The notes below the pieces were generated by a model. The model saw only the letters and a program-made list of their open reading frames with translations. It did not search any database and was not told where the DNA came from. From the NCBI GenBank assembly GCA_965262675.1, contig OZ253554.1:3220640-3284639 (forward strand): DNA of 64,000 nt, in the 5' to 3' direction. The position numbers and the translations under genes are program-made. The DNA is from Terriglobia bacterium. Lineage in GTDB: Bacteria; Acidobacteriota; Terriglobia; 20CM-2-55-15. Positions 7,308 through 36,221 of this stretch are shown here, one piece after another. Numbering within the stretch: position 1 is the stretch's first letter; each line of letters opens with the position of its first letter.

Positions 7308-7322
7308 CTTCCCATTCATTTC

Positions 7323-7703
7323 ATGACCGGGCAATCCGACAGGGTTTTCGTTTCCGAGATCGAATGTGCTTCCGCCATCGGCGTCACGGACGAAGAGCGT
7401 GCCGCGCCCCAGCGCTTGTCCATCGATGTCGAGGTCATGACCGACCTGCGCGCCGCAGCTGCCAGCGATGACGTTGCCGATTCCGTGGATTACGGGCAAA
7501 TCGTCCGAATGGTGGCGGACATGGCCGGCAATCGGGAGTACCGCTTGTTGGAATCTCTGGCCGAGCGCATTGCCGGTGGCGTTCTCACTGTACTGGGCGG
7601 CGATTCCGTCCGGGTTCTCGTGCGAAAACTGTCGGCCCCGATACCGACGCCGCTGAAATTTGTATCGGTGGAAGTCGTGCGGCAGAGCAAGAATCGAGCG
7701 TAA
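7323..7703 (+). CDS. folB: Dihydroneopterin aldolase
   Basis: Approximately 120-aa FolB-like pattern: IGVTDEER, QRLSIDVEV, ASDDVADSVDYGQIV, YRLLESLAERIA. Confidence 0.8.
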   Translation: MTGQSDRVFVSEIECASAIGVTDEERAAPQRLSIDVEVMTDLRAAAASDDVADSVDYGQIVRMVADMAGNREYRLLESLAERIAGGVLTVLGGDSVRVLVRKLSAPIPTPLKFVSVEVVRQSKNRA

Positions 7704-7921
7704 CCGATTCTGAACGAAAGCCGCTTGGGCCCATATTTCTATTGAAGAACCCGAAAAAGCTGCGCTATTCTACGTCCCACCTATATGACAGCTCGGCAAA
7801 CTGTACCTGTCAGACTGAAAACGGAAATCTTAATCAAATCTGACCGGTTTCAATCGACCGGAAAGCGCTTTCAAGACTACTGTTCAGGCGGAGAGAAGCG
7901 CGCGTTCCCAAGGAGGCACCT

Positions 7922-10551: not shown

Positions 10552-10947
10552 TCATGGCGTTTCGATAGACGATCCCGCGAACAGGCGCCGACCATCCTGG
10601 GTAATAACCCGGGCATTGCAGGTATCGGTTCCATCGTGAGCGCGGAAACCCTCGATCTGCACGTCATCTCCGGTCTTCAGCGTTTCGCTGGTCCACCCAA
10701 GACGGCGTAACGAATTGGGCGTCCCGCCCTCGCACTGCCAGTTCTCGACATCCCCATCCGCATTTCTGACATCCAGATAGAACCAGATATGCGGATTGGT
10801 CCACTCCACCTTCGTGATCTCTCCATCGAGTTCAACGGATTGGTCGGAATCGAAGACCGCCGCAAACGAGTGATGGGCCAACGCCGCGGCCGGTAGTAAC
10901 AGGGCGACTGTACAAAGTGTCAGTATTGCTTTCATCATTCCTTTCAT
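10552..10947 (-). CDS. Small secreted protein, paralog family B (mature N-terminus HHSFAAVFD)
   Basis: Signal peptide ends ...AAALA, then HHSFAAVFD, followed by W.NPH and DGRRLFAGSS motifs. Paralogous to 26764..27186 and 35796..36221. GGAGG Shine-Dalgarno 5 nt upstream of ATG 10947. Confidence 0.7.
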   Translation of the reverse strand: MKGMMKAILTLCTVALLLPAAALAHHSFAAVFDSDQSVELDGEITKVEWTNPHIWFYLDVRNADGDVENWQCEGGTPNSLRRLGWTSETLKTGDDVQIEGFRAHDGTDTCNARVITQDGRRLFAGSSIETP

Positions 10948-11180: not shown

Positions 11181-11942
11181 ATGAAAATTCGCTTCTCGAA
11201 TTGGACCGTTGTATTCGCTGCCGTTGCCACGATCCTGCTGCTCGTACCAACTGCGACCGAAGCCCAGGACTCGATACCGCGACTCCAGAACGGCAAGCCC
11301 GACTTCAGCGGCATCTGGGACAAGCCGCGTGTGGGCAACATCGTCACGGACTCGAACACCTGCGGTGCGGCGAGCACGGGATGCGTTCAGGAAGGCGCCG
11401 GCGAACCCCCCTACACGGAACTGGGTCAGGCACGTTGGGACGGATATCGAAACGACTGGACCGGCTATTGTCTGCCCTGGGGATATACGCGGGCCTTGCA
11501 GACCTCATATCCGGTCGAGATCGTCCATACCCCCCGTCGCATGGCGTTCCTGTACGAATCCAACAACATTTTTCACGTCGTGAATGTGGACGGAGAACAG
11601 CCAGAAAACCTGGAAGCAACATGGATGGGACGATCGGTATCGCGCTGGGAAGGCGATACGCTGATTATCGATACCCGCGGATTCAACGGAAAGACCTATA
11701 TTGACACGGCGGAACATCCGATGAGTCCCGACATGGTCATCACTGAACGCATCGGCTATATCGATGCCGATCACCTCTCCTATCAGGTCACCTGGAACGA
11801 CCCCGTCATGTACACCCAGCCATTATCTAACAACCGCATCTTCGTTCGAATGGCGCCCGACGCCGAGCTTTTCGAATACTGGTGCATGGAAAACAACAAG
11901 GATCTGCTTGAAGGCCGGCTGCCGCCGCTGATCGAACAGTAG
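11181..11942 (+). CDS. Secreted protein, paralog family A (PDFSGIW / CLPWG / WEGDTLIID motifs)
   Basis: Signal peptide followed by PDFSGIWD, WEGDTLIIDTRGFNGKTY and a C-terminal EYWCMENN Cys. Four other paralogs lie in the window. Confidence 0.75.
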   Translation: MKIRFSNWTVVFAAVATILLLVPTATEAQDSIPRLQNGKPDFSGIWDKPRVGNIVTDSNTCGAASTGCVQEGAGEPPYTELGQARWDGYRNDWTGYCLPWGYTRALQTSYPVEIVHTPRRMAFLYESNNIFHVVNVDGEQPENLEATWMGRSVSRWEGDTLIIDTRGFNGKTYIDTAEHPMSPDMVITERIGYIDADHLSYQVTWNDPVMYTQPLSNNRIFVRMAPDAELFEYWCMENNKDLLEGRLPPLIEQ

Positions 11943-19102: not shown

Positions 19103-19335
19103 GACACCAAAAACTCGGTAATGTCTCGGTTCGAATGCCGTCAGAGACAAACTCCACAATCTCAAACCTGGACACTACGAACAGTTCTTTTTCCTATGCA
19201 GTAGCCCTCAGCTAAAATACCATGCTTGGAAGCTTTGGAACGGGTTGCATAGTTCTCTTGATAAACGACTTCGCCCACGGGGAATTGCTCGTGATCGAGT
19301 GCTTGGGAACGCTCAACGTTAAGGAAGGGTGGTCG

Positions 19336-20997: not shown

Positions 20998-23423
20998 AGA
21001 GGATGCTTCTCCAAACGGCGGCGCTGATCCTCGTCCTCGCCGGCCTTCCGGCCCTCAGCGAAGCCCGGCAATCGCTGGCGGACTACCAGGGGTTGGTTGA
21101 TCAATACTGTGTCACCTGCCATAACCAGCAGACGCGCATACCCGCAGGGGCGCCGCTCGCGCTGGACACGGTAAACCTTCAAGACCCCAGTGCGGATGCC
21201 GGGATTTGGGAGAAAGTCGTTCGCAAGCTCGGCCTGGGCGCGATGCCTCCACAGGGTGCGCCGACACCTGGTCCGGACGAATTGACGGCGTTCCGATCGA
21301 CATTGATCGCCAGCCTCGACGACGCCGCGGCGCAAACGGACAGCCCGGGACGCTACGTCCTGCACCGTCTGAATCGCAGCGAATACGGCAACGCCGTCCG
21401 CGACCTGTTGGGTGTCGAAGTGGATGTCAGCGAACTCCTCCCGAGCGATGGCGGCGACTTCGGGTTCGACAACATCGCATCGGCGCTCACGATTACCCCG
21501 ATCCTTCTCGAGGGATACCTCTCGGCCGCGTTGCGCATTGCCGATCTTGCGATCGGCGATGTCGAGGCCGAACCGGGCACGTCGACCTATTCGATCAGCA
21601 CGATCGTCACACAGAGGGAGCACGTGGAAGGACTGCCGCTCGGGACGCGAGGCGGCATTGCGGTGACCCATACGTTCCCGGCCGACGGCGAGTACGTGTT
21701 CTATGGACGGCTCCTGCGCACGGTTGCGGAAGGCTACGTCGGGGTCGAGGGCCATGAATCGCCGTTTGACTTCATCGTGACGGTCGATGGCGAGCAGGTG
21801 TTTTCGGCGCCGGTCGGCGGGAGAGAAGACCACGAGTCCAGTTCGGAAAACATCACAGTATCGAAAGATGAAATCGACGAGCGCATGACCTCGCCGCCGA
21901 TCCCGGTTACGGCGGGTCCGCACAAGATCGGATTCACGTTCATCGATCGGCCCACTCAGGAACAGAACGTGTGGAAACCGGTGCTGCGCGAGAGCCTGGA
22001 AGCACACAACCCCTCGGGCATTCCGAGGTTGCGAGCCGGAAACGTCGAAGGACCTTACAACGTCACGGGCATCGGCGACACGCCGACGCGCCGGCGCCTG
22101 TTTACGTGTCAGCCGGCATCGGCGGCCGACGAAGCCCCGTGCGCTGCTGAAATATTGTCCAATGTGGCAAGACGCGCCTTCCGGCGGCCCGTCGACGCCC
22201 CGGACATACAGGCGCCGATTGCCTTCTACGACGCTGCTCGATCCGAAGGTGGCGACTTCGACGCCGGAATCCGCGCGGGTCTGGTTCGGATCCTGGCCAG
22301 TCCGTCATTCGTATTTCGTGCGGAAGAAGACCCGGCGAACCTTCCGCCCGGCGCCGCGCATCGCATCACCGATATCGAACTGGCTTCACGCCTGTCGTTC
22401 TTCCTCTGGAGCAGCATTCCCGACGATGAGTTGCTGGATCTGGCCATCGCTGGCCGATTGAGTGAGCCGGACGTTCTGGAGGCTCAGGTCGGGCGAATGA
22501 TCGCCGATGGCCGGGCCGACGCAATGATCACCGAGTTCGTCGGACAGTGGCTCCAACTCCGCAACATCGACAAGGTAACGCCCGATCTTCTGATGTTCCC
22601 GGACTTCGACGACAACGTCCGGCAGGCGTTCCGCCGCGAAACCGAACTGTTCTTCACGAGCATCGTTCGCCAGAATCGAAGCGCGCTGGAGCTTCTGGAT
22701 GCCGACTATACGTACCTTAACGAACGGCTCGCACGGCACTACGGCATCCGGGGCGTCCTTGGTTCCCAGTTCCGCCGGGTGCGGGTGGAAGATCCGAATC
22801 GGCGGGGCCTGTTGGGCCATGGCAGTGTCCTTACGCTGACCTCGGCCGCGAATCGGACCTCGCCCATCATCCGCGGGAAGTATGTGATTTCGAATCTTCT
22901 GAACACGCCGCCGCTGCCGCCGCCGGCCAACGTGCCGTTGCTGGAGGAGAGCGCGCCGGCGGACCGGCCTTCAACGGTCCGTGAACAACTGGAACTGCAT
23001 CGTGCGAATCCGGCATGCGCGGCTTGCCATCGCAATATCGACCCCGTCGGATTTGCGCTGGAGAACTTCAATGCGGTGGGCCAGTGGCAGGATACGACTC
23101 GAGAGGGGCTGGAGATCGATTCCGCGGGAGTTCTGGTCGACGGTACGTCGGTCGACGGTCCCCTGGAACTGAGGAACGCACTCCTCGCCAGACCCGAGGT
23201 GTTCGTTGGCACGGTCACCGAAAAGTTGATGACCTACGCCTTGGGGCGGGGACTCGAACCCATCGATCTGCCCGTGGTACGCCGCATCATGAACGACGCC
23301 GCGACAGATGATTACGCCATGCAATCGATAATTCTGGGGATCGTCCGAAGTTCCGCCTTTCAGATGCGTACCAAGTTGACGGATACTGTTCCAATCAATC
23401 GACAGACAGCAGAGAGGGATTAG
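20994..23423 (+). CDS. DUF1587/DUF1592/DUF1595/DUF1588/DUF1585 multidomain protein with N-terminal CxxCH (PSD1-like)
   Basis: Signal peptide and a CVTCHN heme-binding motif. The classic partner of DUF1552 proteins in Planctomycetes, Acidobacteria and Verrucomicrobia. Confidence 0.85.
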   Translation: MKRMLLQTAALILVLAGLPALSEARQSLADYQGLVDQYCVTCHNQQTRIPAGAPLALDTVNLQDPSADAGIWEKVVRKLGLGAMPPQGAPTPGPDELTAFRSTLIASLDDAAAQTDSPGRYVLHRLNRSEYGNAVRDLLGVEVDVSELLPSDGGDFGFDNIASALTITPILLEGYLSAALRIADLAIGDVEAEPGTSTYSISTIVTQREHVEGLPLGTRGGIAVTHTFPADGEYVFYGRLLRTVAEGYVGVEGHESPFDFIVTVDGEQVFSAPVGGREDHESSSENITVSKDEIDERMTSPPIPVTAGPHKIGFTFIDRPTQEQNVWKPVLRESLEAHNPSGIPRLRAGNVEGPYNVTGIGDTPTRRRLFTCQPASAADEAPCAAEILSNVARRAFRRPVDAPDIQAPIAFYDAARSEGGDFDAGIRAGLVRILASPSFVFRAEEDPANLPPGAAHRITDIELASRLSFFLWSSIPDDELLDLAIAGRLSEPDVLEAQVGRMIADGRADAMITEFVGQWLQLRNIDKVTPDLLMFPDFDDNVRQAFRRETELFFTSIVRQNRSALELLDADYTYLNERLARHYGIRGVLGSQFRRVRVEDPNRRGLLGHGSVLTLTSAANRTSPIIRGKYVISNLLNTPPLPPPANVPLLEESAPADRPSTVREQLELHRANPACAACHRNIDPVGFALENFNAVGQWQDTTREGLEIDSAGVLVDGTSVDGPLELRNALLARPEVFVGTVTEKLMTYALGRGLEPIDLPVVRRIMNDAATDDYAMQSIILGIVRSSAFQMRTKLTDTVPINRQTAERD

Positions 23424-23426
23424 CCC

Positions 23427-24755
23427 ATGATCATTACAAAGAAGCATCTGCCTCGCCGGTCGTTCCTGCGGGGGGCCTTGGGGACGATGGTGGCGTTGCC
23501 GTTTCTGGACGCCATGGTTCCGGCCTTGTCGGCCCAGACCACGGCGCGGCCGTTCCGATTCGGCGCGATTTACGTGCCGAACGGAATCTACCCGCAATTG
23601 TGGCATCCGGACACGACGGGAAGCGACTTCGAATTCAAGTCGATCATGGCGCCGCTCGAGCCGTACCGCGACTACTTGGTCACGCTCAGTCAGATGAAGG
23701 CTCCGGACGGGAATCCGGAGATGGGTGGTGTGCACATGGGTGCCAGCGCGGCATGGCTGAACGGCGTCGGTCCACTCACCGGCCAGGCAAACTATACCGT
23801 CATCCAATCCAAGAAGACCATCGACCAGTTCATCGCCGACGGGATCGCCGGAGACACTCCCCTGCGGTCCCTCCAGGTGGGAACCGAGGACATGGGAACT
23901 TCCGCGGGCGCCTGCGACGGCTTTCCCTGCGTCTTCTTCAACACCGTTTCATGGCGCGACGACACCAGTCCGCTGCCCATGGGTATCAACCCGCGTGTGA
24001 CTTTCGAACGCATGTTTGGAGAAACCGGTTCGGCGCGTAAACGGCTTTCGAACCTCAAGCTGAAGCAGAGCGTGCTGGATTCGATCGCCGAGGAAGCGGC
24101 CAATATGCAGCGAAGGCTGGGGGCCGCCGATAACGCCATTCTCGATGAGTACCTGACGAACGTTCGCGATGTCGAACAGCAACTTGACCGCATGGAAACC
24201 CGCTCCGACGCCGTTCCCGAGGGCACGTCCGCTCCGACGGGGATCCCCGATACCTTCGACGAACACATGACGGTAACCTACGACCTGATGCGCTTGGCGT
24301 TCCAGGGCGACATCTCACGCGTGTTCACGTTCATGGTCGGTCACGAGGGAAGCAGTCGGAGTTATTCCCACATCGGAATTCCCGAGCCGCACCATCCGGT
24401 ATCGCACCACGCGGACAACCCCGAAAACATCGAGCGGTACGCGAAGGTCACCACCTACCATTCCGTCAAGCTCGCCGAGTTCATCGGCAAGCTCCAGGCG
24501 ACCCCAGACGGCGATGGGACGCTCCTGGACCGATCGGTCATCTACTATGGCAGCGGCATGAGCAACGGCAATGCCCACGACCGCAACAATGCCCCGGTCC
24601 TCCTGATGGGCGGTGCGAATGGCCGGTTGAAGGGCAATCGCCACATCGCCGTGGAAAACAAGGAACCGACAGCCAATCTTCTGCTCGGCATCGCCGATCT
24701 GGCCAATGTTGAGGTCGAACAGATCGGCCACAGCACCGGCCGGCTTGTCCTTTAG
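23427..24755 (+). CDS. DUF1552 family protein with Tat signal
   Basis: RRSFLRGALGTMVALPF Tat motif. Conserved DUF1552 segments such as FGAIYVPNG and HHPVSHH. Confidence 0.85.
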   Translation: MIITKKHLPRRSFLRGALGTMVALPFLDAMVPALSAQTTARPFRFGAIYVPNGIYPQLWHPDTTGSDFEFKSIMAPLEPYRDYLVTLSQMKAPDGNPEMGGVHMGASAAWLNGVGPLTGQANYTVIQSKKTIDQFIADGIAGDTPLRSLQVGTEDMGTSAGACDGFPCVFFNTVSWRDDTSPLPMGINPRVTFERMFGETGSARKRLSNLKLKQSVLDSIAEEAANMQRRLGAADNAILDEYLTNVRDVEQQLDRMETRSDAVPEGTSAPTGIPDTFDEHMTVTYDLMRLAFQGDISRVFTFMVGHEGSSRSYSHIGIPEPHHPVSHHADNPENIERYAKVTTYHSVKLAEFIGKLQATPDGDGTLLDRSVIYYGSGMSNGNAHDRNNAPVLLMGGANGRLKGNRHIAVENKEPTANLLLGIADLANVEVEQIGHSTGRLVL

Positions 24756-24995: not shown

Positions 24996-25838
24996 ATGAG
25001 ATCCATCGTTTCAAAGTTCCCGAAGACATCGGGGTGTGCCACGGCCGCCATCGTCCTGATTGCCGCGGCCTGCGTCTGGACCGAAGAGGCCACCGCGAGG
25101 CAGACCGGCGATGCCGCCGGTGCAACGATTCCACGAACCGCGGATGGACGTCCGGACTTTCAGGGCATCTGGCAGGTTCGGAACCGGGCCTCGTACAACC
25201 TGGAAGATCACGCCGCGGGGTACGGCATGCCTCCCGGCCGGAGCGTGGTCGATGGCGGGCGAATTCCCTACCAGGCGGCCGCGGTCGAACAAAGGGACGC
25301 GAACTTCAGAGACCGGGAAACCGCCGATCCGCTTTCAAAGTGCTACATGCCAGGCGTTCCGCGGATCATGTACATGGAGCATCCCTTTCAGATTTTTCAA
25401 ACCCCCGACCACATTGCGATGACTTTCGAATGGTCGCTGGTCCACCGACTGATCTACACCGATGGGGAACCGCAACGATATTCCGGACTGGAGTTCTGGA
25501 TGGGGGATTCGCGCGGCCGCTGGGAAGGCGACACGCTGGTCGTTGACGTGACCGGCCACAACAACCGCACATGGTTCGACATGTCCGGCAACTTTCACAG
25601 TGAGGCGATGCGACTGGTTGAGCGGTATACGATGCTCGACCCGGACACCATCGAATACGAGGCGACGATCGAGGATCCCCAGGTGTTCACCCAGCCATGG
25701 ACGATCCGTATGCCGATCTATCGGCACAAGGACATGGACCGGGTCCTCGAGTATCATTGCCAGGCCGAAGTCGAAGAGGCGAACGGGGCGTTCGAACGCG
25801 ATGAACGCACCTGGTATCCTGGGCGGTCGGAGCCATGA
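24996..25838 (+). CDS. Secreted protein, paralog family A
   Basis: PDFQGIWQ, CYMPGVPR, WEGDTLVVDVTGHN and EYHCQAE motifs. Track ORF trimmed to ATG 24996, which has a GGAG Shine-Dalgarno. Confidence 0.75.
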   Translation: MRSIVSKFPKTSGCATAAIVLIAAACVWTEEATARQTGDAAGATIPRTADGRPDFQGIWQVRNRASYNLEDHAAGYGMPPGRSVVDGGRIPYQAAAVEQRDANFRDRETADPLSKCYMPGVPRIMYMEHPFQIFQTPDHIAMTFEWSLVHRLIYTDGEPQRYSGLEFWMGDSRGRWEGDTLVVDVTGHNNRTWFDMSGNFHSEAMRLVERYTMLDPDTIEYEATIEDPQVFTQPWTIRMPIYRHKDMDRVLEYHCQAEVEEANGAFERDERTWYPGRSEP

Positions 25839-26767
25839 GTCACATTCCGAACGCCCCTTCGAGCACCCTTTTCAATCGAGCAATCCGAATGAACCACCCG
25901 AGAAATCCGATGAAACGACGGCGCAATTTCCTGCTTCGAGCCGTTCTGGCGGCAGCGATAACGACACCCCTGGCGATGGCGCCGCAATCCTATGCGGCCC
26001 AGGGACGTGGGAGTGCGGATTCGGCGCCGTCCGGACCCATTCGCCGACTGCCGGATGGCACGCCCGACATTTCGGGCCTCTACCAAGCCGACGGAGGAGG
26101 CGCAAACTACGGACTCGAACAGAAACCCCGGGACTTTCTGACTCCGGCGTCAAGAGGCGTGGTTGTCGATCCGCCCGATGGCATACTGCCGTACCAGGAA
26201 TGGGCGCGAGCGGAACGGATCGACCGCTATCTTCCTCACCGTGGATATGACGATCCGACGGCACATTGTTTCGTGGCCGCAGGCGTCCCACGTTCCCATT
26301 ACGTACCGTCCCCGTTCCAGATACTGCTGCCTCCCGGATATGTCGTTATTCTGTTCGAGCGGATGGCCTGGCGCCAGATTCCCCTTGACGGGCGGGATCA
26401 CATTCCGGAAGACATCCGGCTATGGAACGGCGACTCCGTGGGCCGATGGGAAGGCGATACGCTGGTCGTCGAGACCACGAACATGAACGGCAAGACATGG
26501 CTGAACGAAGTCGGAGACGTGGTCAGTCACGCGCAGACCACCGTCGAACGGTTCACGCCTCTGGATGCCGATACCATCACATACCAGGCCACGGTGACCG
26601 ATCCCATCGCCTACACGGCGCCGTGGACGATGGAAATACCATTGAACCGCAGGGACGACGAAATCCTCGAGGTCGCGTGTCTCGAAGACAATCAGGATCT
26701 GGAACATCTCAAGGATGTCCGCGACGCATGGCGGGCGGAACAAGGACAAGGAGAGACTGGACGATGA
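25835..26767 (+). CDS. Secreted protein, paralog family A (Tat-like RRRNFLLRA signal)
   Basis: PDISGLYQ, CFVAAGVPRS, WEGDTLVVETTNMN and EVACLEDN motifs. Start ambiguous (25835, 25889 or 25910). The stops overlap the neighbouring genes. Confidence 0.7.
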   Translation: MSHIPNAPSSTLFNRAIRMNHPRNPMKRRRNFLLRAVLAAAITTPLAMAPQSYAAQGRGSADSAPSGPIRRLPDGTPDISGLYQADGGGANYGLEQKPRDFLTPASRGVVVDPPDGILPYQEWARAERIDRYLPHRGYDDPTAHCFVAAGVPRSHYVPSPFQILLPPGYVVILFERMAWRQIPLDGRDHIPEDIRLWNGDSVGRWEGDTLVVETTNMNGKTWLNEVGDVVSHAQTTVERFTPLDADTITYQATVTDPIAYTAPWTMEIPLNRRDDEILEVACLEDNQDLEHLKDVRDAWRAEQGQGETGR

Positions 26768-27186
26768 GGGTTAATTTCAGCAGAACGATACGCGCGCTCG
26801 CCACGATTGCGTTCGCCGTGGGCGTGTTTGCCGTTTCGGCCGGCGCACATCACGCCTTCACCGCGGAGTTCGACCCGAACAGCCCGATCGAGGTCACTGG
26901 CAAGGTGACGGATATGTTGTGGTCCAATCCACATGCCTGGATCTATATCGATGTCGAAGGACCCGATGGCGAGGTCGTCAACTGGTCATTCGAGTCGGGT
27001 TCGGCGAACGGGTTGATCCGGCGCGGATGGCGGAAAGAAGACCTGATCTTCGGCACCGAACTTGTGATCACGGGCTGGCAGGTACGCAGTGGAGGACCCT
27101 CCGGGAACGCCAGCAGCATCACTCTTCCGGACGGGCGCCGACTGTTTGCCGGCACGTCCAACCCCGACGCTCAGGAGAACGAGTAA
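26764..27186 (+). CDS. Small secreted protein, paralog family B (mature N-terminus HHAFTAEFD)
   Basis: Signal ...VSAGA, then HHAFTAEFD; WSNPHAWIY; DGRRLFAGTS. ATGA overlap with the upstream family A gene. Confidence 0.75.
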   Translation: MRVNFSRTIRALATIAFAVGVFAVSAGAHHAFTAEFDPNSPIEVTGKVTDMLWSNPHAWIYIDVEGPDGEVVNWSFESGSANGLIRRGWRKEDLIFGTELVITGWQVRSGGPSGNASSITLPDGRRLFAGTSNPDAQENE

Positions 27187-27245: not shown

Positions 27246-28976
27246 TTATTCCGGCAACGCGAACACGTAGATCTCATTGTGGCCGCTTGGCGGATTGACG
27301 CCCGCGCCCCGTGCCAGGGCACCGCCCTTGTCGCCTGTTGTGACCGCGACATATTGCGTACCGTCCACGGCATAGGTGATGGTGCTGATCGAAATCGGCC
27401 CGCCCAGGACGGATTCCCAGAGCTGTTCCCCCGTATCCACATCATAGGCACGGAAACGGCGGTTCACGTCGCCGTGAAATACGACGCCGCCTGCCGTCGC
27501 GAGAGTGGATCCCGTGCTGGGAATGGCACTGACCCCGAAGCGCATGATTTCGCCCGTATCCAGATTCACCTTCGCGACACCTGCGAACTCGTCGGGATTC
27601 CCTTCGGGACGTGCCTCGCCGAACCGCCGTTCGCGGTTGTCACCGTCGGCTCGAGTCATGTTGAGGCAGTTGTCGACATAGGGAATGTATAGCGAATTTG
27701 TGCCGGGGTGGAACGAAGACGGCCAGAAACTGGTCGTGTTGAAGAAGCAGATCAGATGGTTTTCGCCCGGTTCCTTCAGGACGAGGTCCCAGTTGAGCTC
27801 GGTCCGGCCCGTGGCGCCATCGATGTTCGAAATCAGGAATCGTTCGGTGTCGAACGGAAACGGCGTGGCCCAGAGGAACTCGCCCGTTCGGCGGTCGTTC
27901 ACAAATATACCTCCGCCCTCTCCCACCATTACCGTGGCGTCGCGTTCCTCGCCGCGAGGAACGTTCGGATTGAACCACTTGACGTATTCCGGCTCGGGGT
28001 TGAAACGGATCGTGGTCAAGATCCGTTCGTTGGTGTAGTCCTCGTCCCAGTCGTCCCCGGGAAGGTGTTGGAAATACCATTTCAACTCACCGGTGTCCGG
28101 GTCCAGCGCCAGCGTGGAGTTACTGTACAGATCCGAAGGCGACGTGCGCGGAATCGTGTCGACTTCGCCGTCATGACGCGCCGCCCGCGTGTTTGGCATC
28201 GGATTGGCGACGCCCCACAGCACGGTATTGGTTTCGGGGTCGTAGGATCCGGGCAGGCCCCAGGTCGATGCCATGTTCCTGTCGTGCGTTTCAGGAGACG
28301 GGTTGCCCCAGGTTTCGTATCCTGGCTCGCCCGGACCGGGAACCGTAAAAAACTTCCACAGTTCCTCGCCGGTTTCGATGTCGTGGGCAGCGATGAAGCA
28401 GCTCTCGCGGGTCCGTGCGCATGCGCGTCCGGAAATCACCTTGCCGTTGACGGCCACGGGGCCGGAAGTGTGGTCGGCTTCACCGGCATAGGTCTGCCAC
28501 CGGACCTCGCCATTGACCGCGTCCAGAGCGACAATGTAGCCGTCGGGCGCCGTGTATAAGATCACGTCGCCATAGATCGCCAGGGTCTTGGTTCGTGCCC
28601 GCCCGGCGGCATCGCCCGCATCGTGGCGATATTCCCACAAGCTGTCGCCGTTGGTGGCATCGACCGCGCGCACGACGGCGCCGGGCTCGACGATATACAT
28701 CACGCCGTCGTGGACTATCGGAATCGCTTCGGCGCTGCCATTGTTCATTCCCCGAGACCAGGCCAGGGTGAGCCCCTCGACATTGTCCCTGTCGATCTGT
28801 TCCAGCGGGCTGAACCGTTGCGCATCGTAGGTGCGACTGAACATGAGCCAGTCGTCGGGACTCGGGTTCTGGAGCATCGCGTCGGAAACCGGCTGGTAGT
28901 CCGGAACCTGAGCGATGGCGGAAGGAACGAACAACAGGAACAATGAAATAGCGGTCAAGTGTCGAGTGAGTCTCAT
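27246..28976 (-). CDS. PQQ-dependent alcohol dehydrogenase-type quinoprotein (8-bladed propeller)
   Basis: Signal peptide. Tryptophan docking repeats and overall similarity to the methanol/ethanol dehydrogenase family. Trimmed to ATG 28976, which has a GGAGG Shine-Dalgarno. Confidence 0.85.
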   Translation of the reverse strand: MRLTRHLTAISLFLLFVPSAIAQVPDYQPVSDAMLQNPSPDDWLMFSRTYDAQRFSPLEQIDRDNVEGLTLAWSRGMNNGSAEAIPIVHDGVMYIVEPGAVVRAVDATNGDSLWEYRHDAGDAAGRARTKTLAIYGDVILYTAPDGYIVALDAVNGEVRWQTYAGEADHTSGPVAVNGKVISGRACARTRESCFIAAHDIETGEELWKFFTVPGPGEPGYETWGNPSPETHDRNMASTWGLPGSYDPETNTVLWGVANPMPNTRAARHDGEVDTIPRTSPSDLYSNSTLALDPDTGELKWYFQHLPGDDWDEDYTNERILTTIRFNPEPEYVKWFNPNVPRGEERDATVMVGEGGGIFVNDRRTGEFLWATPFPFDTERFLISNIDGATGRTELNWDLVLKEPGENHLICFFNTTSFWPSSFHPGTNSLYIPYVDNCLNMTRADGDNRERRFGEARPEGNPDEFAGVAKVNLDTGEIMRFGVSAIPSTGSTLATAGGVVFHGDVNRRFRAYDVDTGEQLWESVLGGPISISTITYAVDGTQYVAVTTGDKGGALARGAGVNPPSGHNEIYVFALPE

Positions 28977-29256
28977 GGACCCTCCTGAAAGAGTGCGAGC
29001 CGATCGCCGATCGATCGTCCGGCCTGAAATTCCTGTTTGACAATCGGTTTCCCGACAACGATACAGATTGCGGTCCAGGGAGTCGATCTCTCGATCCGGT
29101 TTTTCGTCTCGGCCGGTTGAGCGTTCCGGCGAGACTTTCTGGTTTGCCAGGTTCACTCGCCCGCGGACGGAGGTGCCGTCTTGTTCACGCACGCGATGGC
29201 CGGCCTGCTGGCGTTCGGCATGCTCGGCCAGATGGGGTAACGCGTCTCTCGGGCCG

Positions 29257-30552
29257 CTACTGATCTTCTTCGTCGAACTCTTCTTCTCCCAGGCGGAAAG
29301 CCTGGGCCAGTTCCGGGTCGTCGTCGATCCCTAGCGCACGCCGAGCGATGTACTCCCCGATTACCGGTCCCGACTTGAAGGCCTCGGCCGAACCGCCTCC
29401 GGCCAGCCAGACGTTGTCGAAGTCGGGGTGTTGATCGATGATGAAGTTGCGGGTCACGCTGAACTCGTAGTGGCAGGACCGCGTTTCGTTGATTGCGGCG
29501 CCCACGAGATCGGGGAAATGCCGTTCCAGAATCTGACGCGGCTGATCGTGATACCGGGAATCGATCCATCGATCGCTCACGTCGGGGTCGGCGGGCGGGC
29601 GGCCGCCCGTTCGTACGCGGAAACCCCTGTAATCGGGTCCCAGCGCGGGCCAGCCCGTAACCCCGGGGATGCCATAGCTGGGCATGTTGGGGTAGACCCA
29701 CCGCGGGTCTCCGGGCGGCGTGGCGAAGTAGTAGACATGGCCCATCGGAATGCGGATACGGCGTCCCATCAGTTCGGGAAACACTTTGGGAAACCAGGGG
29801 CCGCAAGCGAAAACGAACGTCGACGATGCGATCGAATCCCCGGTTTCGAGCGTGACCGTTTGAAGAGCGCCGCCGGACCGGCTGCCGACGGAAGCGCGGC
29901 CCAAGACCAGCGCGCCGCCCTCCTGTAGAAACACCTGGGCCACGGATTCGATCGCACGGCGCGCCCGGACCACACCCGCGCCGGGTTCGTAGAGAGCGGC
30001 CCCGAGGTTTTCGAACCGGATCCAGGGCCACCGATTAGTGACTTCGTCAGGGCTCAGGAACTCGTAGGGAATCCCCAGGGCGTCCCAGTTTGCGGCGGAC
30101 CGCTCCAGATAGGGGATCATCTCCTCACGAAGGATCAGGTCTCCGGTGTTGTAGAACAACGGCGGCAGGAGCCGGTCGGTGTTTTCCTCGTCCCAGTCTC
30201 TCCAGCGCCGGATCGACTCGACGGCCCAGCGTGTCCAGAGCAGTCCGTGCGCCTCGTCGCCGTATGCGCTGCGGACGCCGCGGGTTTCCCCTCCCGAACT
30301 GGACCTGGAGTTTGCCGGCCCATACGGGTCGACCACGGTGACCGACGCGCCGAGGCGGAGCAGGTGGAGCGCCGTCCACATCCCGAACGAGCCCGCGCCG
30401 ACAACGACCACATCGGGAGAGCCGGCCTGGGGTTTGCCGACGGATGTGAGGCTGAACGTTCCCCGCGCGGCACCCGGAGCCGCGAGGCCGAGAGCCGCTG
30501 TCTTGAGGAAGGTCCGACGGTGGAGCGACGCCTCTTTTCTTCTGGAAGTCAT
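29257..30552 (-). CDS. FAD-dependent oxidoreductase (DAO/sarcosine-oxidase-like), Tat-exported
   Basis: Tat motif HRRTFLKTAALGLAA followed by the VVVVGAGSFGMW Rossmann motif. Track ORF 29257..31341 trimmed to the internal ATG. Confidence 0.8.
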   Translation of the reverse strand: MTSRRKEASLHRRTFLKTAALGLAAPGAARGTFSLTSVGKPQAGSPDVVVVGAGSFGMWTALHLLRLGASVTVVDPYGPANSRSSSGGETRGVRSAYGDEAHGLLWTRWAVESIRRWRDWDEENTDRLLPPLFYNTGDLILREEMIPYLERSAANWDALGIPYEFLSPDEVTNRWPWIRFENLGAALYEPGAGVVRARRAIESVAQVFLQEGGALVLGRASVGSRSGGALQTVTLETGDSIASSTFVFACGPWFPKVFPELMGRRIRIPMGHVYYFATPPGDPRWVYPNMPSYGIPGVTGWPALGPDYRGFRVRTGGRPPADPDVSDRWIDSRYHDQPRQILERHFPDLVGAAINETRSCHYEFSVTRNFIIDQHPDFDNVWLAGGGSAEAFKSGPVIGEYIARRALGIDDDPELAQAFRLGEEEFDEEDQ

Positions 30553-30752
30553 TCCCCACCCCCGCCGATCAAACCCGTCGTATACGCCTTGCCCGGGGGG
30601 ATCTGGATGGGGGCGAGGTCGTTCACGTTGTGCTCGTTGATCTCGGTCCAGTTGATGTAGCTGTTTATACCGGCTCCCGGCCACCCGTGCAAAAAAAGCG
30701 CATCCGATGACGGCCGCCCCGCACGCGGACAGAGGCTGGAACCCCGTTTTTT

Positions 30753-32735
30753 TCAGGGAAGCGCCATCGCCGTCAGCGTGCTTCCGGTTTGAAGCATCAC
30801 ATACTGTTTGCCATCGTAAACGTACGTCATCATACCGTAACGACTGCCGGCCGGAACATCCACCGTACCCACGCGCTCTCCCGTCGCCTTGTCGACCGCA
30901 TAGAGGCGTGGGGAACCGTCGCCCGCGGCGCCGGCATAGATCAGCAACGTTTCGGTCACGGTCATCGGCGCGACGTTGCCCGAGCCCGTGTTCGGGATGT
31001 CCATTCCCTGTAAGTCGGGATGATTCGCGACGCGGTCGGGCGTATCGCCGACCGGAATCCACCAGAGGTGATCCCCGGTGTTCATGTCGATTGCCGTGAT
31101 CCGGCTGTAGGGTGGCTTGTACAGAGGCAAACCGTCGGGTCCGCGAGCCGCCGCGCTTCCCCCCACCGCGAAATCGGCGATCGTCGTGCCGGTGGGTGCG
31201 TCCTCGCGTGCATCGCGCTCGGCGCCTGGGACAATGATCCGCGAGGTGCATGCCTTGCGCGAGGTCACGTACAGGATTCCCGTTGCGGGATCGGCGGCCG
31301 CCGGCCCGTCGATGTTCACGCCGCCGACATCTCCGGGACACCAGAGCGCCCCGCGCTTGTCGAGGTCGTTATCCCGATGAAGCGGGGGATTGAACAAGGG
31401 GCCGATCTGGAACGGCTCGAGCGCTTGGAGCGCCCGCTCCCTCAACTCGGGAGTGAAATCGATCAGGTCGTCGACCGTGAGCCCTTGCATATCGTACGGC
31501 GCCGGGCGGGTCGGGAAAGGCTGGGTCGGGGACAGTTGTTCGCTTGGAACGAGCGATGCCGGGACCGGGCGCTCCTCGATCGGCCAGAGGGGCTCCCCGG
31601 TCTCGCGGTGGAACGCGTACGCGAAGGCCTGCTTCGTCACCTGCACGACGGCGGGAACCTCTTCCCCGTCGACGGTCACGTCGAGCAGCACGGGCGCCGT
31701 CGGTGTGTCGTAATTCCAGATGTCGTGATGCACGAGTTGGTAGTGCCAGGCTCGCTCTCCGGTCTGCACGTCCAGTGCGATCAGGCTGGTGCTGAACAGG
31801 TTGTCCCCGGGCCGGAACCCCCCGTAGAAGTCGATCGTGGCCCCGTTGGTCGGAATGTAGACGATGCCCCGCTCCGGGTCCGCCGCCATCGGCGCCCATG
31901 ACGACACGTCGCCGGTCCATTCCCATGCGTCGTTTTCCCACGTTTCGTGACCGAACTCGCCGGGGCGGGGAATGACGTTGAACTTCCACAGGAATTCTCC
32001 CGTCCGGGCGTCGTAGGCCAGAATGTCTCCCGGAATATTCTCGATGCGCGACTGGTTGTAGCCTTGTTCCGCCGAATTGCCCACGATCACGACATCGTTG
32101 ATGACGATGGGCGGGGACGACGCGGTGATGTAGCCGACTTCCAGCGGGATACCGTCATAGACATCGTACTCGTGGCCCAGATCGGCGAGCAGGTCGACCG
32201 AGCCGGTCGGCCCGAACCCGTCAATCGGAACGGACCCGCCGAAGCCTTCCAGAGGCTGGCCCGTCCCGGCGTCCAGGGCATGGAGGAAGAACGCCGGTGT
32301 CGTGATGTACACGACGCCGCGGCCGTCGATCTCCGCGTATGCGACGCCCTTTCCGTAGTCCTGCCGCATGGAGTATTCCCACCGGCCGGTGTTGGGCTCG
32401 CGGAACGACCAGAGCGTCTCTCCGCTTGCGGCATCGAGTGCGACGACGTGGCGGCGTGGACCGGCGACCGTATACAGCTTGCCGTCGGCGTAGACCGGGG
32501 TCGAGCGCCCGCTGGCGGCGTCAAAGCTGGCGCCGTCCCAGACCCATGCTTCCTGAAGGTTCTCGAAGTTGGAAGCGTCAATCTGGTCGGCCGGAGAGTA
32601 TCGCGTGTGCCGGGCATCGCCTCCGACGAAGCGCCACTGGCCGTCTTCGGTCCCGGTCTGCGCTCCGAGCAGGGCGGGGGTCCACAGGATGCCGGCGGCA
32701 ATGAGCGCCGTTGCGTATCGTCCGGGTAGGATCAT
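30753..32735 (-). CDS. PQQ-dependent dehydrogenase (quinoprotein), secreted
   Basis: Signal peptide MILPGRYATALIAAGILWTPALLGAQ. PQQ propeller repeats (for example AxDxxTGExLW ...). Trimmed from 33308 to ATG 32735, which has an AAGGAGAG Shine-Dalgarno. Confidence 0.85.
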   Translation of the reverse strand: MILPGRYATALIAAGILWTPALLGAQTGTEDGQWRFVGGDARHTRYSPADQIDASNFENLQEAWVWDGASFDAASGRSTPVYADGKLYTVAGPRRHVVALDAASGETLWSFREPNTGRWEYSMRQDYGKGVAYAEIDGRGVVYITTPAFFLHALDAGTGQPLEGFGGSVPIDGFGPTGSVDLLADLGHEYDVYDGIPLEVGYITASSPPIVINDVVIVGNSAEQGYNQSRIENIPGDILAYDARTGEFLWKFNVIPRPGEFGHETWENDAWEWTGDVSSWAPMAADPERGIVYIPTNGATIDFYGGFRPGDNLFSTSLIALDVQTGERAWHYQLVHHDIWNYDTPTAPVLLDVTVDGEEVPAVVQVTKQAFAYAFHRETGEPLWPIEERPVPASLVPSEQLSPTQPFPTRPAPYDMQGLTVDDLIDFTPELRERALQALEPFQIGPLFNPPLHRDNDLDKRGALWCPGDVGGVNIDGPAAADPATGILYVTSRKACTSRIIVPGAERDAREDAPTGTTIADFAVGGSAAARGPDGLPLYKPPYSRITAIDMNTGDHLWWIPVGDTPDRVANHPDLQGMDIPNTGSGNVAPMTVTETLLIYAGAAGDGSPRLYAVDKATGERVGTVDVPAGSRYGMMTYVYDGKQYVMLQTGSTLTAMALP

Positions 32736-33115
32736 GGCTGGGTCTCTCCTTATCGGGCGGCGCCGTTGGCCGCCACGCTTCCGCATTGTCACCGGGATCG
32801 GCTCGGTTGTCGACAAGGATCGTCCGGTCGGGCGCTCACAGGGCGTGGACGACACGGGCGCGATATTTTCGACCCGCCCTGACTCGTCGGCATGACATTC
32901 CAGACAAATGTCGCCGAAGTCATTCACGTCGTCGCAGGTACAGTCCTGGTACATCCGAGGGCCGCGATTCGCGCTTACGTTGGATGCGCAGAGCAGTTCT
33001 ACGGGCAGCTGGGCGACGCTGATGCCAACTGCAAACCGAAGGAACAGAGCCGACGTTGTCGCCGCTGATGTGGCGGTTTCCTCAAACAGATCGATTCGGC
33101 GCCGAAGCCATCTTC

Positions 33116-33146
33116 TTGACTGTATGGCCGTTGCCAACCTATATAT
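33116..33146 (+). promoter_or_regulatory. Sigma70-like promoter for the family A gene at 33205
   Basis: TTGACT (33116), 18-nt spacer, TATATA (33140), in a 470-bp divergent intergenic region. Confidence 0.35.
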
Positions 33147-33204
33147 GAACCTGCGAATCGCCGGGTACCGAGTCGACGTATCGAGCCAAGGGGAGATCGA
33201 CCAC

Positions 33205-34035
33205 ATGAAAGACGGGTTGCGTGGTGGAATCATGGTCCTGGCCGTGGCGGCGGCGATCGTCTCGATAGGGGTGGGAACCACAGCCGCACAGTCGGCGGGC
33301 TCGGACATTCAACGTGCCTGGGACGGCAACCCCGATCTGAACGGGATCTGGCAGGCAATCGGTACCGCACATTGGGACATCCAGGATCATGCGGCCGCCG
33401 CGGGGCTGCCCGAAATGGGAGCGATCGGTGCGATTCCTCCGGGCCAGGGCGTAGTGGACGGCAACGAAATCCCGTATCGGGAATGGGCTCTCGAACAAAG
33501 GCGACAGAATTTCGAGAACCGCTTCACCGAGGATCCCGAGATCAAGTGCTACATGCCGGGCGTCCCACGCTCGACCTATCTCCCGTATCCATTCCAGATC
33601 GTCCAGGGAACCGGCAAGATGATGATGGTCTACGGGTTTGCCGAAACCAATCGCACCATTCACATGGACAAGGAAAACCCTGAGCCCGCGCCTATCGACA
33701 GTTGGATGGGGCGGTCCCACGGGCAATGGGAAGGCGACACGCTCGTCGTGGATGTCGCCGGTTTCAATGGGCAGTCGTGGTTCGACCGGGCAGGTAACTT
33801 TGCCAGCAGCACGTTGCACGTGGTCGAGCGGTATACCCCGATGGGCGCCAATGCAATCATGTACGAGGCCGTCATCGAAGATCCGAACGTGTTCACACGC
33901 CCATGGACCATGCGGATGCCCCTGTATCGACGTCTGGAAGACAACATCCAGATCCTGGAATTCAAGTGCGTCGAATTCTCCGAAGAACTTCTTTATGGCC
34001 ATCTGCGCCGGCAATCGCCAGACCGAGACCAGTAA
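33205..34035 (+). CDS. Secreted protein, paralog family A
   Basis: PDLNGIWQ, CYMPGVPRS, WEGDTLVVDVAGFN and EFKCVEFS motifs. AAGGGGAG Shine-Dalgarno. Confidence 0.75.
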   Translation: MKDGLRGGIMVLAVAAAIVSIGVGTTAAQSAGSDIQRAWDGNPDLNGIWQAIGTAHWDIQDHAAAAGLPEMGAIGAIPPGQGVVDGNEIPYREWALEQRRQNFENRFTEDPEIKCYMPGVPRSTYLPYPFQIVQGTGKMMMVYGFAETNRTIHMDKENPEPAPIDSWMGRSHGQWEGDTLVVDVAGFNGQSWFDRAGNFASSTLHVVERYTPMGANAIMYEAVIEDPNVFTRPWTMRMPLYRRLEDNIQILEFKCVEFSEELLYGHLRRQSPDRDQ

Positions 34036-34050
34036 CGAGGTAAACACGCC

Positions 34051-35790
34051 ATGAAAGCGAAACGTGCAGTCCATATGCTCCTTATCGGAATCGCGTTGGC
34101 CGCCGCCGTGTCAGGCGTGGCCCGCGCAGCCGATTATCATCATGTCCACCTCGCGGTCCCGAGCCCGACCGAAGCGGTCGCATGGTATGAGCGGTACATG
34201 GAGTGTGAGGCGATTCCGGAACGCACGGACGCCGTCTCGTGCGGCGGTGTGGAGATCCATTTCGATGTCCTCATCACGGTGGGCGGGAGCCAGGGCACCG
34301 GCGTGAACCATATCGGCTTCTCGTTCGCGGATCTGACAGGCAAGATGACGGAACTCGAAGGAGTGGGCGTCGGGGGCCGGGGCGTGCGACTCCAACGGTT
34401 CGACGACGGCTCGACTCTGAGCGACGTACCGGGACTGTTCACTCACGGCTTTGTGTTCGATCCGTGGGGGACGCGCATCGAACTCGTGGAGGACCCGAAT
34501 TATCTCGGGTTCCATCATGTCCACCTGAGTTCCACCGACCCGGAAGCGAGCCTGGACTGGTATCGGGAGAATCTGGGGGGCGAGAGAGCCCGCCTCAACG
34601 GACAACTCGACGGACTGTTGTTCGACAACGTGTGGCTCATCGTTTCGGCCCACCCCGAGGGTACGCCCCCGCCGGCGCCTACCGTGGGCCGGGCAATCGA
34701 TCACATCGGTTTTCTCGTATCCGACCTGGACGAGGCAGCGGCCGACATGAGTGAACGCGGGGTTGCGCTCGAGGGCACGGAGACTGGCCGGACATCGGCG
34801 AGACGGGCCTTCATTGCGGGTCCGGACAACGTGGCTCTCGCGGTTGTGGAGCCGGGATGGGAGGGGGTCGTTGCAAATTCTCTGGCAGCGGACATCGGCG
34901 CCGTTCCACTTGGAGAACCGTACACGGTGCCCAGAACGCCGTGGGGCACCCCGGATCTGCAGGGCGTCTGGACTTCGAACCGGGCACACGGCATTCCTCT
35001 CGAACGCCCCCTGGACCTGGCGGACATCGAGGAACTGACTCCCGAAGAAGCCGCCGCGCGCCGCGAACGGGGAACGCTGGGAAGCATTTGGGGTTACGAA
35101 CGGGAATGGCGCGATACGACACTGGGGTTGGTCGGTTCGTCGCCGTCGACCCAGGTGGCCATGGTGGTCGACCCGCCCGACGGACGCGTCCCCCCGCTGA
35201 CGCCGGAAGCCCAGGCGCGGACCGGCGGGGGACGCGGAGGCCGAGGCGGCCTGCCGGCGGGGCCCGAAGACCTGAGCAATTACGTGCGGTGCATCACGCG
35301 GGGTCTGCCCAGCCTGATGATGCCGGGCATCTACAACAACGGCCTGCAGATCGTGCAAAGCCCCGGTCATGTCGCGATTCAGAAGGAGATGATCCACGAA
35401 ACCCGGATCGTTCCAACCGACCCGAAACCGTATCTGGGAGAGAACCTGACCCAGTGGCTCGGCGATTCGCGCGGCCGCTGGGAAGGCGACACGCTGGTGG
35501 TCGAGGTGACCAACTTCAATGGAAGGGCCGTATACCGGAATTCCAGCACGGCGATGAAACTGACCGAGCGTTTCACGCGCATCGGTCCCGAGACGCTGAT
35601 GTACGAATTTACCATCGACGATCCGTCCACGTGGACTCGGCCATGGACCGCGATGTTCACGTTCGAGAAGGACGACGACCAGTATGAACTGGTCGAATAC
35701 GCCTGCCATGAAGGCAACTACGGAATGACAAACATCCTGAACGGCGCCCGCGCGCAGGAATTGGCCGCCGACGAAGACACCGGGAGATAA
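34051..35790 (+). CDS. Fusion protein: two VOC (glyoxalase/dioxygenase-like) domains plus a C-terminal family A domain
   Basis: The N-terminal half has two HVHLAV/HVHLSS ... HIGFSF/HIGFLV VOC-type repeats. The C-terminal half carries PDLQGVW, CITRGLPS, WEGDTLVVEVTNFN and EYACHEGN motifs. Confidence 0.75.
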   Translation: MKAKRAVHMLLIGIALAAAVSGVARAADYHHVHLAVPSPTEAVAWYERYMECEAIPERTDAVSCGGVEIHFDVLITVGGSQGTGVNHIGFSFADLTGKMTELEGVGVGGRGVRLQRFDDGSTLSDVPGLFTHGFVFDPWGTRIELVEDPNYLGFHHVHLSSTDPEASLDWYRENLGGERARLNGQLDGLLFDNVWLIVSAHPEGTPPPAPTVGRAIDHIGFLVSDLDEAAADMSERGVALEGTETGRTSARRAFIAGPDNVALAVVEPGWEGVVANSLAADIGAVPLGEPYTVPRTPWGTPDLQGVWTSNRAHGIPLERPLDLADIEELTPEEAAARRERGTLGSIWGYEREWRDTTLGLVGSSPSTQVAMVVDPPDGRVPPLTPEAQARTGGGRGGRGGLPAGPEDLSNYVRCITRGLPSLMMPGIYNNGLQIVQSPGHVAIQKEMIHETRIVPTDPKPYLGENLTQWLGDSRGRWEGDTLVVEVTNFNGRAVYRNSSTAMKLTERFTRIGPETLMYEFTIDDPSTWTRPWTAMFTFEKDDDQYELVEYACHEGNYGMTNILNGARAQELAADEDTGR

Positions 35791-35795
35791 GACCC

Positions 35796-36221
35796 ATGCG
35801 AACGACTCTTGCCGTCATTCTGGCCTCTGCTCTCATCCTTACGGGCACCGCCCCGTTGATGGCGCACCATGCGTTTTCCGCGGAGTTCGATTCCACCAAG
35901 CCTGTCCGAATACGTGGCAAGATCACGCGCATGGAATGGATCAATCCCCATGCCTGGATGCACCTCGACGTGACACAGGATGACGGCACGGTAGAAAGCT
36001 GGATGATCGAGGCCGGCCCCCCGGGCGCGCTTGTCCGCAGGGGATGGAACAGGGATTCGGTGGTTGTCGGCACGGAGGTGCTGGTGGAAGGCTATCGGGC
36101 TCTGGACGGGTCGAACCGGGCCAACGGCCGCGATGTGACGTTCCCGGACGGCCGCCGGTTGTTCGCGGGATCCTCCGGCACGGGCGCGCCAATCGATGGG
36201 ACCGACCCCACCGAGCGGTAG
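35796..36221 (+). CDS. Small secreted protein, paralog family B (mature N-terminus HHAFSAEFD)
   Basis: Signal ...APLMA, then HHAFSAEFD; WINPHAWMH; DGRRLFAGSS. Confidence 0.75.
   Translation: MRTTLAVILASALILTGTAPLMAHHAFSAEFDSTKPVRIRGKITRMEWINPHAWMHLDVTQDDGTVESWMIEAGPPGALVRRGWNRDSVVVGTEVLVEGYRALDGSNRANGRDVTFPDGRRLFAGSSGTGAPIDGTDPTER

Follow-up and report, generated by a model that had tools for sequence, protein, structure and literature searches.

Three small proteins encoded in a stretch of Terriglobia bacterium DNA (contig OZ253554.1, positions 3,220,640 to 3,284,639) carry two adjacent histidines at their predicted mature N-terminus, directly behind the signal peptide. The stretch, at its full length of 64 kb, is referred to below as the window, and all coordinates are counted from its first letter. 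The proteins, designated B1, B2, and B3, are members of the DUF6152 family, and B2 is the last gene of a cassette that also holds two genes of a second family, here called family A. The His-His doublet (HH) is kept in distant members of DUF6152, and its best reading is a metal site built from the N-terminal amine and imidazoles, a plausible interpretation to which a probability of roughly 0.45 is given. Metal binding by DUF6152 is given about an even chance. The features of B2 and its two paralogs on which this rests are as follows.

26764..27186, + strand: B2, DUF6152 gene for a 140-aa precursor (open reading frame and translation; Pfam PF19649, E 7e-29)
26764..26847, + strand: predicted signal peptide of B2, 28 aa, MRVNFSRTIRALATIAFAVGVFAVSAGA (n/h/c-region layout, A-x-A-type site)
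26848..26853, + strand: codons CAT CAC for His1-His2, the predicted mature N-terminus of B2
26848..26874, + strand: N-terminal arm HHAFTAEFD of B2 (H1, H2, F4, A6, and D9 invariant in the alignment of close homologs)
26926..26934, + strand: N27-P28-H29 (NPH) motif of B2, at the β1-β2 turn (the family's most conserved residues; H29 is a candidate further ligand)
10552..10947, - strand: B1, DUF6152 paralog (HH codons at 10870-10875; ...AAALA, then HHSFAAVFD)
35796..36221, + strand: B3, DUF6152 paralog (HH codons at 35865-35870; ...TAPLMA, then HHAFSAEFD)

B2 and its paralogs are DUF6152 members. Their scores against the Pfam model (PF19649) are 100.2, 111.9, and 103.7 bits, compared with a gathering threshold of 27 bits, and no other Pfam family is matched by any of the three. 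Pairwise identity among them is 42–46%, and PF19649 is carried by all listed homologs of B2. A hidden Markov model (HMM) scan of all open reading frames (ORFs) in the window recovered exactly these three copies. The start codon of B2 is the same in an independent gene call on identical public metagenome contigs, and the strings quoted in the first-pass annotation for the junctions between signal peptide and HH are exact. No NCBIfam model for DUF6152 proteins was found, and a literature search for DUF6152 or PF19649 returned no paper, in keeping with the earlier statement that no role is established for the family.

Conservation of the doublet is the evidence that carries the finding. HH follows the signal peptide in 120 of 120 close homologs of B2. 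In a non-circular search, the query began after the HHAFTAEFD arm and was run against 1.84 billion cluster representatives, yielding a family of 5072 clusters (50% identity) at E ≤ 1e-3. HH was examined in the best 150 of these 5072 clusters (35–72% identity), and 93 had an evaluable N-terminus. The doublet was at the expected position in 81 and shifted by an indel in one; four sequences were frameshift artefacts (ITRS..., the +1 frame of HHSF...), three had a single His (HP, HP, and RH), and HH was missing in four (P0131, P0162, P0220, and P0239). Among real sequences found with this arm-less query, the frequency of HH is about 92% (81–82 of about 89). In the SignalP 6 training set, by comparison, only 2.6% of mature proteins begin with His (PMC12537917).

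Two further samples agree. A second subfamily, reached via P0126, has HH in 118 of 119 members, and the extra DUF6152 copies in the fetched loci, which were detected with HMMs lacking the arm and were unselected for HH, have it after the signal peptide in 17 of 17 cases. Some of the latter carry quite divergent arms (HHGAAAHFD, HHSASIFD, HHPIEAKFD, HHASAGIYD, HHSTFNYYD, and HHSFAAYD). The pattern used to scan genome contigs itself contained HH, and because the central hits of that scan were selected with it, they were left out of all HH statistics. According to the first-pass annotation, absence of His1 and His2 from more distant homologs would have undone its proposal; among the best 150 of the 5072 clusters and the unselected copies, they are retained.

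Three relatives deserve mention for their architecture. A very divergent DUF6152-like ORF at 7277-7786 (+) of locus L016, reached only by HMM iteration, has HHSFAAYD after its signal peptide and NPDANH in place of NPH. In P0186, the C-terminal part of a family-A protein precedes a DUF6152 domain that lacks the HH arm, and in P0162 such a domain follows a membrane-like segment; each of these is either a fusion or an assembly/frameshift artefact.

Cleavage was scored solely with a (-3,-1)-rule scan, and the family sample comprised 204 full-length members. The N-termini of the three paralogs have one to three K/R residues, a hydrophobic stretch, and then a small-x-small site; their signal peptides end in A/L/G-x-A with HH directly after, and they contain neither a lipobox Cys nor a twin-arginine motif. 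The rule permits a cut directly before HH in B1, B2, and B3, as well as in 190 of the 204 members (93%), which makes this the sole position so consistent and upholds the signal peptidase site that had been placed there in the first-pass annotation. Other permitted offsets relative to HH are +5, inside the conserved arm (146/204, 72%), -5 (131/204, 64%), and -2 (81/204, 40%); a cut one residue upstream is permitted in 42 of 204 sequences. In homologs, the segment before HH is 15–42 residues long and variable in sequence, and conservation begins exactly at HH. Of the 81 representatives with HH, 73 have Ala at position -1 and 70 have A, L, or V at position -3. Since only the site before HH is consistent across the family, it settles the ambiguous positions in B1 and B2, and the three paralogs are very probably cut directly before His1.

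A structure prediction, which the first-pass annotation had proposed as a check, gave a fold other than that of CopC or LPMOs (lytic polysaccharide monooxygenases). AlphaFold2 (AF2), supplied with the mature B2 sequence and 65 aligned homologs, returned a model with a mean predicted local distance difference test (pLDDT) score of 84 and a predicted template modelling score (pTM) of 0.77. Its elements are β1 (8-26), β2 (29-37), β3 (43-51), a helix (53-58), β4 (71-79), and β5 (85-92), i.e., a five-stranded barrel with a helix between strands 3 and 4. In this model DUF6152 is an oligonucleotide/oligosaccharide-binding (OB) barrel. Foldseek against the PDB retrieved SSB, PriB, and the OB anticodon-binding domain of lysyl-tRNA synthetase (E 6e-4 to 1e-2, TM about 0.5), and a PDB sequence/profile search with B2 gave nothing below E 0.15, hence no solved sequence relative. 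The mature protein is predicted to be about 12 kDa, with a short N-terminal arm of the form H1-H2-x-F-x-A-E-F-D. Covariation by mutual information with average product correction (MI-APC; effective number of sequences, Neff, 129) recovered the contacts of the β2-β3 hairpin and weakly coupled arm residues 4 and 5 with residues 33 and 31 of β2, the strand of H29.

The most conserved positions lie in the barrel. In 92 representatives at 60% identity, conservation is 100% for P28, 98% for H29, 97% for W46, 96% for E49, 95% for N27, and 91% for R58. H1 and H2 are present in 80–82% of all rows at this clustering, artefacts included, which equals the figure for Ala at -1. It follows that conserved polar residues around the NPH turn form a site belonging to the OB core itself and that the HH arm is an addition to it; the conserved polar residues beyond HH (H29, E49, D9, and D35) are potential further ligands.

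Proteins with two DUF6152 domains in tandem offer a natural comparison between a free and an internal domain. In P0126, P0391, and P0392, all from public metagenomes, the signal peptide leads straight into HHSI(Y/F)AEYD of the first domain; in the second, internal domain the arm is missing altogether, and NPH has decayed to MDPH, MDQRAH, or nothing recognizable. Loss of the arm from an internal domain agrees with the arm having a use only where the N-terminus is free. Judged from these sequences, the support for such a role is modest, because a single lineage is involved and the second domain has lost other conserved residues. Joint loss of HH and NPH was also considered as a sign of a shared site and set aside as weak evidence, since R58 and W61 are gone from the second domain as well.

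If the preferred reading is correct, B2 would be exported by the Sec pathway and cut by signal peptidase I directly before His-His. The free α-amine, together with the imidazole of His1 and/or His2, would then chelate a divalent transition metal, with further ligands perhaps supplied by invariant H29 in the NPH turn, by D9 or E49, or by a partner protein. On chemical grounds, the metal could be Cu(II), Ni(II), Zn(II), or Fe(II). The protein would act as the metal-capturing, metal-delivering, or metal-bearing small subunit of a periplasmic A/A'/B system, encoded by the translationally coupled last gene of an A-A'-B cassette, with two secreted calycin-like barrels as its partners. The genes of these putative partners in the window, and the signals that link them to B2, are listed here.

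24996..25838, + strand: A1, first family-A gene of the B2 cassette (280 aa, secreted, no Pfam match)
25889..26767, + strand: A2, second family-A gene (start 21 nt further on, at 25910, in the public gene call)
26764..26767, + strand: ATGA overlap of the A2 stop (TGA) and the B2 start (ATG), read from the sequence
26750-26755, + strand: GGAGAG, Shine-Dalgarno-like, 9-14 nt upstream of the B2 start
11181..11942, + strand: family-A paralog, divergent from B1 (tblastn E 3e-27)
33205..34035, + strand: family-A paralog, first gene of the third cassette (tblastn E 3e-71; orthologous 276-aa gene call in locus L001)
34051..35790, + strand: secreted VOC domain fused to a family-A domain, immediately upstream of B3 (Pfam Glyoxalase, E 1.5e-12; C-terminal part A-like)

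Each DUF6152 copy in the window adjoins at least one family-A gene, giving three cassettes within 64 kb, and the ATGA overlap suggests translational coupling of A2 and B2. The association is widespread. Family A lies within 4 kb of DUF6152 in 79 of 81 loci from Gammaproteobacteria, Alphaproteobacteria, and Acidobacteriota (Terriglobia, Bryobacterales, and Vicinamibacterales). The commonest arrangement, in 38 loci, is A-A'-B on a single strand; A-B (10) and B-A-A' (7) come next. Gaps between cassette genes are mostly about 80–100 bp.

With at least 8000 homologs, every one labelled hypothetical, family A is larger than DUF6152; neither Pfam nor NCBIfam yielded a model for it, and a PDB sequence/profile search gave nothing meaningful. 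An AF2 model (pLDDT 78) matched FABP, CRABP, and lipocalin-type calycin barrels in Foldseek, weakly so (E 5e-4, TM about 0.55 on the target). The family has a conserved Cys pair (C116/C255) and no invariant His. On the strength of the model, it is tentatively described as a secreted, calycin-like barrel. We infer that B forms a complex with A and A'. The VOC-A fusion found before B3 also stands upstream of DUF6152 elsewhere (e.g., L049, L070, and others), in metagenome-assembled genomes of Vicinamibacterales and Gammaproteobacteria. VOC proteins (glyoxalase/extradiol-dioxygenase-like) are a superfamily of divalent-metal enzymes; the PDB and NCBIfam matches of this domain, to L-DOPA extradiol dioxygenase, glyoxalase I, and catechol 2,3-dioxygenase, are all weak. 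The N-terminus of A2 (window 25910-25960) has a motif, KRRRNFLLRA, of the twin-arginine translocation (Tat) type. Tat export of A' as a general feature was rejected, as RRRNFLL is kept in only 2 of 14 equivalent genes of other loci.

Beyond the cassette, gene context is uninformative about the metal. In 80 loci, 135 ORFs that flank the cassette were surveyed. None of their Pfam families is seen more than three times, and for want of a recurrent family the identity of the metal is not inferable from context.

A number of observations weigh against an N-terminal metal site. No copper-handling family is among the 25 most frequent flanking families, and the 135 ORFs show no enrichment of copper, nickel, zinc, TonB, or transport families. 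Some genuine DUF6152 members (P0131, P0220, and P0239) are without HH, and at about 80–92% the doublet is less conserved than NPH, E49, and W46 (95–100%). The cleavage call is a rule-based one made from sequence, and in B1 and B2 further nearby positions also pass the rule. With respect to structure, residues 1-3 have pLDDT <50, so the position of the HH tip is not confidently placed, and no preformed site is visible in the model. The start of β1 and the β1-β2 turn may, in the predicted topology, sit at opposite ends of the barrel; an intramolecular site that joins H1/H2 to H29 is for this reason not assured.

There is direct precedent for the chemistry. A 2025 signal-strapping study sought bacterial proteins with His directly after the signal peptide and showed for DUF4198, DUF6702, Ang-1, and Ang-2 that Ni, Zn, or Cu is bound via an N-terminal His exposed by cleavage (PMC12537917). 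For instance, DUF4198 binds Ni with a Kd of 18 nM in a facial, non-canonical brace that includes His18 (PMC12537917). DUF6152 resembles these families in having a conserved His right after the signal peptide and potential further ligands. The N-terminal site of signal-strapping proteins can sit on a flexible segment (PMC12537917). The differences are the fold (OB rather than β-sandwich), the presence of two histidines, and the degree of conservation, i.e., about 92% in DUF6152 against 79% and 65% for the post-signal His of DUF4198 and DUF6702, respectively (PMC12537917). Gene context differs too, with TonB/NikR or permease neighbors in the signal-strapping families and an obligate three-gene cassette with a calycin-like family in DUF6152. 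The text and supplements of that paper do not mention DUF6152 (PMC12537917), and no follow-up paper of the signal-strapping work covering it was found.

The comparison with histidine-brace proteins is more divided. In a histidine brace, Cu is held in a T-shape by the amine and N-π of an N-terminal His and by the N-τ of a second His (PMC10952591). LPMOs of AA9-AA17, CopC, the CuB site of PmoB, PmoF1, and X325/Bim1 are all secreted, with His1 exposed by cleavage, as is predicted for DUF6152; by rule-based prediction, His is indeed its first mature residue, and further conserved His is available in it, as in brace proteins (PMC10952591). In contrast to their Ig-like/cupredoxin-like β-sandwich, DUF6152 is predicted to be an OB barrel, and its His-His doublet also sets it apart. 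Neither a β-sandwich nor homology to a known brace family was found with AF2, Foldseek, Pfam (which gives only DUF6152), or the PDB sequence search. YcnI (DUF1775), with a mono-histidine brace, is likewise extracytoplasmic and binds Cu by an N-terminal His after signal cleavage (PMC8424229; PMC10952591). YcnI shares its locus with the copper importer YcnJ and the regulator YcnK, whereas DUF6152 has an unrelated fold and no such context: a CopC/YcnI-type neighborhood (CopD/YcnJ, CopA/B, regulators) does not emerge from the 135 ORFs around the cassette in the 80 loci. The CopC/LPMO logic put forward in the first-pass annotation has precedent as N-terminal-His chemistry (PMC12537917) and fails for the fold and for the gene context in the 135 flanking ORFs. 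Because the features of fold, homology, and context that mark the LPMO, CopC, PmoB, and YcnI lineages are absent, DUF6152 is not filed as a histidine-brace protein, though it may work like one.

Other metal-site types were also compared. The site of CusF is internal and of the His/Met2/Trp kind, in contrast to the N-terminal candidate site of DUF6152. A CusF-like Met/Met/His (+Trp) site was rejected for DUF6152 because a Met pair is not conserved in it; M23 is kept by the closest subfamily alone, with V, F, or L at this position in other members. An NH2-X-His terminus binds Cu(II) via amine, amide N, and imidazole, and His2 of DUF6152 gives that arrangement. The amino-terminal Cu(II)- and Ni(II)-binding (ATCUN) motif, NH2-X-X-His, was ruled out for the predicted mature protein, as its position 3 is Ser or Ala and not His; only a cut one residue upstream would place His there. 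With regard to scaffold, the periplasmic Cu(I)/Ag(I) chaperones CusF and SilF are reported to be small OB-like β-barrels that carry metal (PMC10656224), so an OB scaffold can be a metallochaperone.

The alternative that survives best, although itself unlikely, is that the HH arm serves docking or structure and binds no metal. The arm would pack on the OB barrel or insert into the family-A partners, with its histidines serving as hydrogen-bond or pH-sensing residues. The obligate A-A'-B synteny and the translational coupling speak for such a role, and F4, A6, and F8 are conserved like HH, with residues 4 and 5 covarying with the barrel. Metal genes are not enriched among the 135 nearby ORFs, and low confidence for the arm in a monomer model would be expected if it became ordered only in a complex. 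However, a motif used purely for packing would not usually place two adjacent histidines exactly at a free N-terminus, internal domains do without the arm, such that the free terminus seems to matter, and metals are bound by published families with this arrangement (PMC12537917).

A canonical copper histidine brace, with the amine and N-π of His1 and the N-τ of His2 or H29 in a T-shape, is improbable. DUF6152 would in that case be a copper chaperone or an oxidative enzyme like CopC or LPMO. His1 at the predicted mature N-terminus and two highly conserved histidines (H2 about 92%, H29 98%) could provide what the definition of a brace calls for (PMC10952591). A canonical brace is nonetheless rated lower than an N-terminal site open as to metal and geometry, because an OB fold with no CopD, CopA, multicopper-oxidase, or PCuAC-type genes among the 135 flanking ORFs is unlike every known brace protein, and because DUF4198, the nearest analog by the same logic, preferred Ni over Cu.

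A remoter idea is that the N-terminal amine and imidazoles ligate an organic cofactor or substrate, for example of the haem type, held in the A/A' calycin barrel. The N-terminal amine of cytochrome f is a haem ligand, and the lipocalin-fold nitrophorins and the nitrobindins hold haem. B is always co-encoded with A, a predicted calycin/FABP-like ligand-binding barrel without an invariant His of its own. Against this, the case is pure analogy, the Foldseek matches of family A are weak, and the cassette contains no cofactor-biosynthesis or haem genes. Finally, cleavage elsewhere, whether one or two residues upstream (leaving an ATCUN-like A-H-H or X-X-H-H end) or after HHxFx with removal of the doublet, is permitted by the rule in B1 and B2 and at the family offsets given above but is scarcely credible, given that no other site reaches 93% of sequences, that Ala at -1 is conserved as strongly as HH, that B3 has no alternative within five residues upstream of HH (TGTA-P has Pro at +1), and that conservation of HH would be unexplained if it were lost with the signal peptide.

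The remaining genes of the window include PQQ dehydrogenases, a DAO oxidoreductase, a DUF1592/DUF1552 pair, and an ankyrin protein. Two PQQ-dependent dehydrogenase genes surround one for a DAO-family FAD oxidoreductase at 27246-33308 (- strand), in the interval from the second cassette to the third; PQQ dehydrogenases are the most frequent flanking family elsewhere, though with only 3 of 135 ORFs. Directly upstream of the B2 cassette (19222-24755) are genes for an ankyrin-repeat protein, a DUF1592/DUF1588/PSCyt-type protein with a cytochrome-c-like N-terminus, and a Tat-signal DUF1552 (HXXSHH) protein, an order of ankyrin, DUF1592-type, and DUF1552 genes that is repeated in the 91%-identical locus L001. 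Adjoining B1 (7922-10018, + strand) is a gene for a radical SAM protein with an HMPTM-type N-terminal zinc ribbon.

The principle that an N-terminal His marks a metal site is already published, and DUF6152 would be a new case of it. What would be new is the scaffold on which this principle occurs, together with the His doublet and the setting in an obligate cassette of three genes. The observation of the doublet itself is confirmed, and the whole is, in our assessment, a good lead in which the function is proposed only. HH at a free N-terminus amounts to a concrete, testable hypothesis for a family without literature, and the proteins concerned are far from rare: DUF6152 and family A are common in soil and marine Acidobacteriota and Gammaproteobacteria, often with several copies per genome. 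If the hypothesis is true, the N-terminal-His metal principle would come to cover an OB fold, a double-His motif, and a multi-protein cassette as well, and a bound metal would provide an entry to the function of two major unknown families, DUF6152 and family A. A more ambitious proposal, and a long shot, is that DUF6152 is the metal-bearing subunit, with a His-brace-like N-terminal site on an OB fold, of a hitherto unrecognized, very widespread three-component periplasmic system of Acidobacteriota and Proteobacteria that performs metal-dependent, possibly oxidative, chemistry on hydrophobic small molecules; its remaining two members would be the calycin-like barrels, at times joined to a VOC dioxygenase-type domain. 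Were that so, N-terminal-histidine metal centers would gain both a new scaffold and a new kind of partner architecture.

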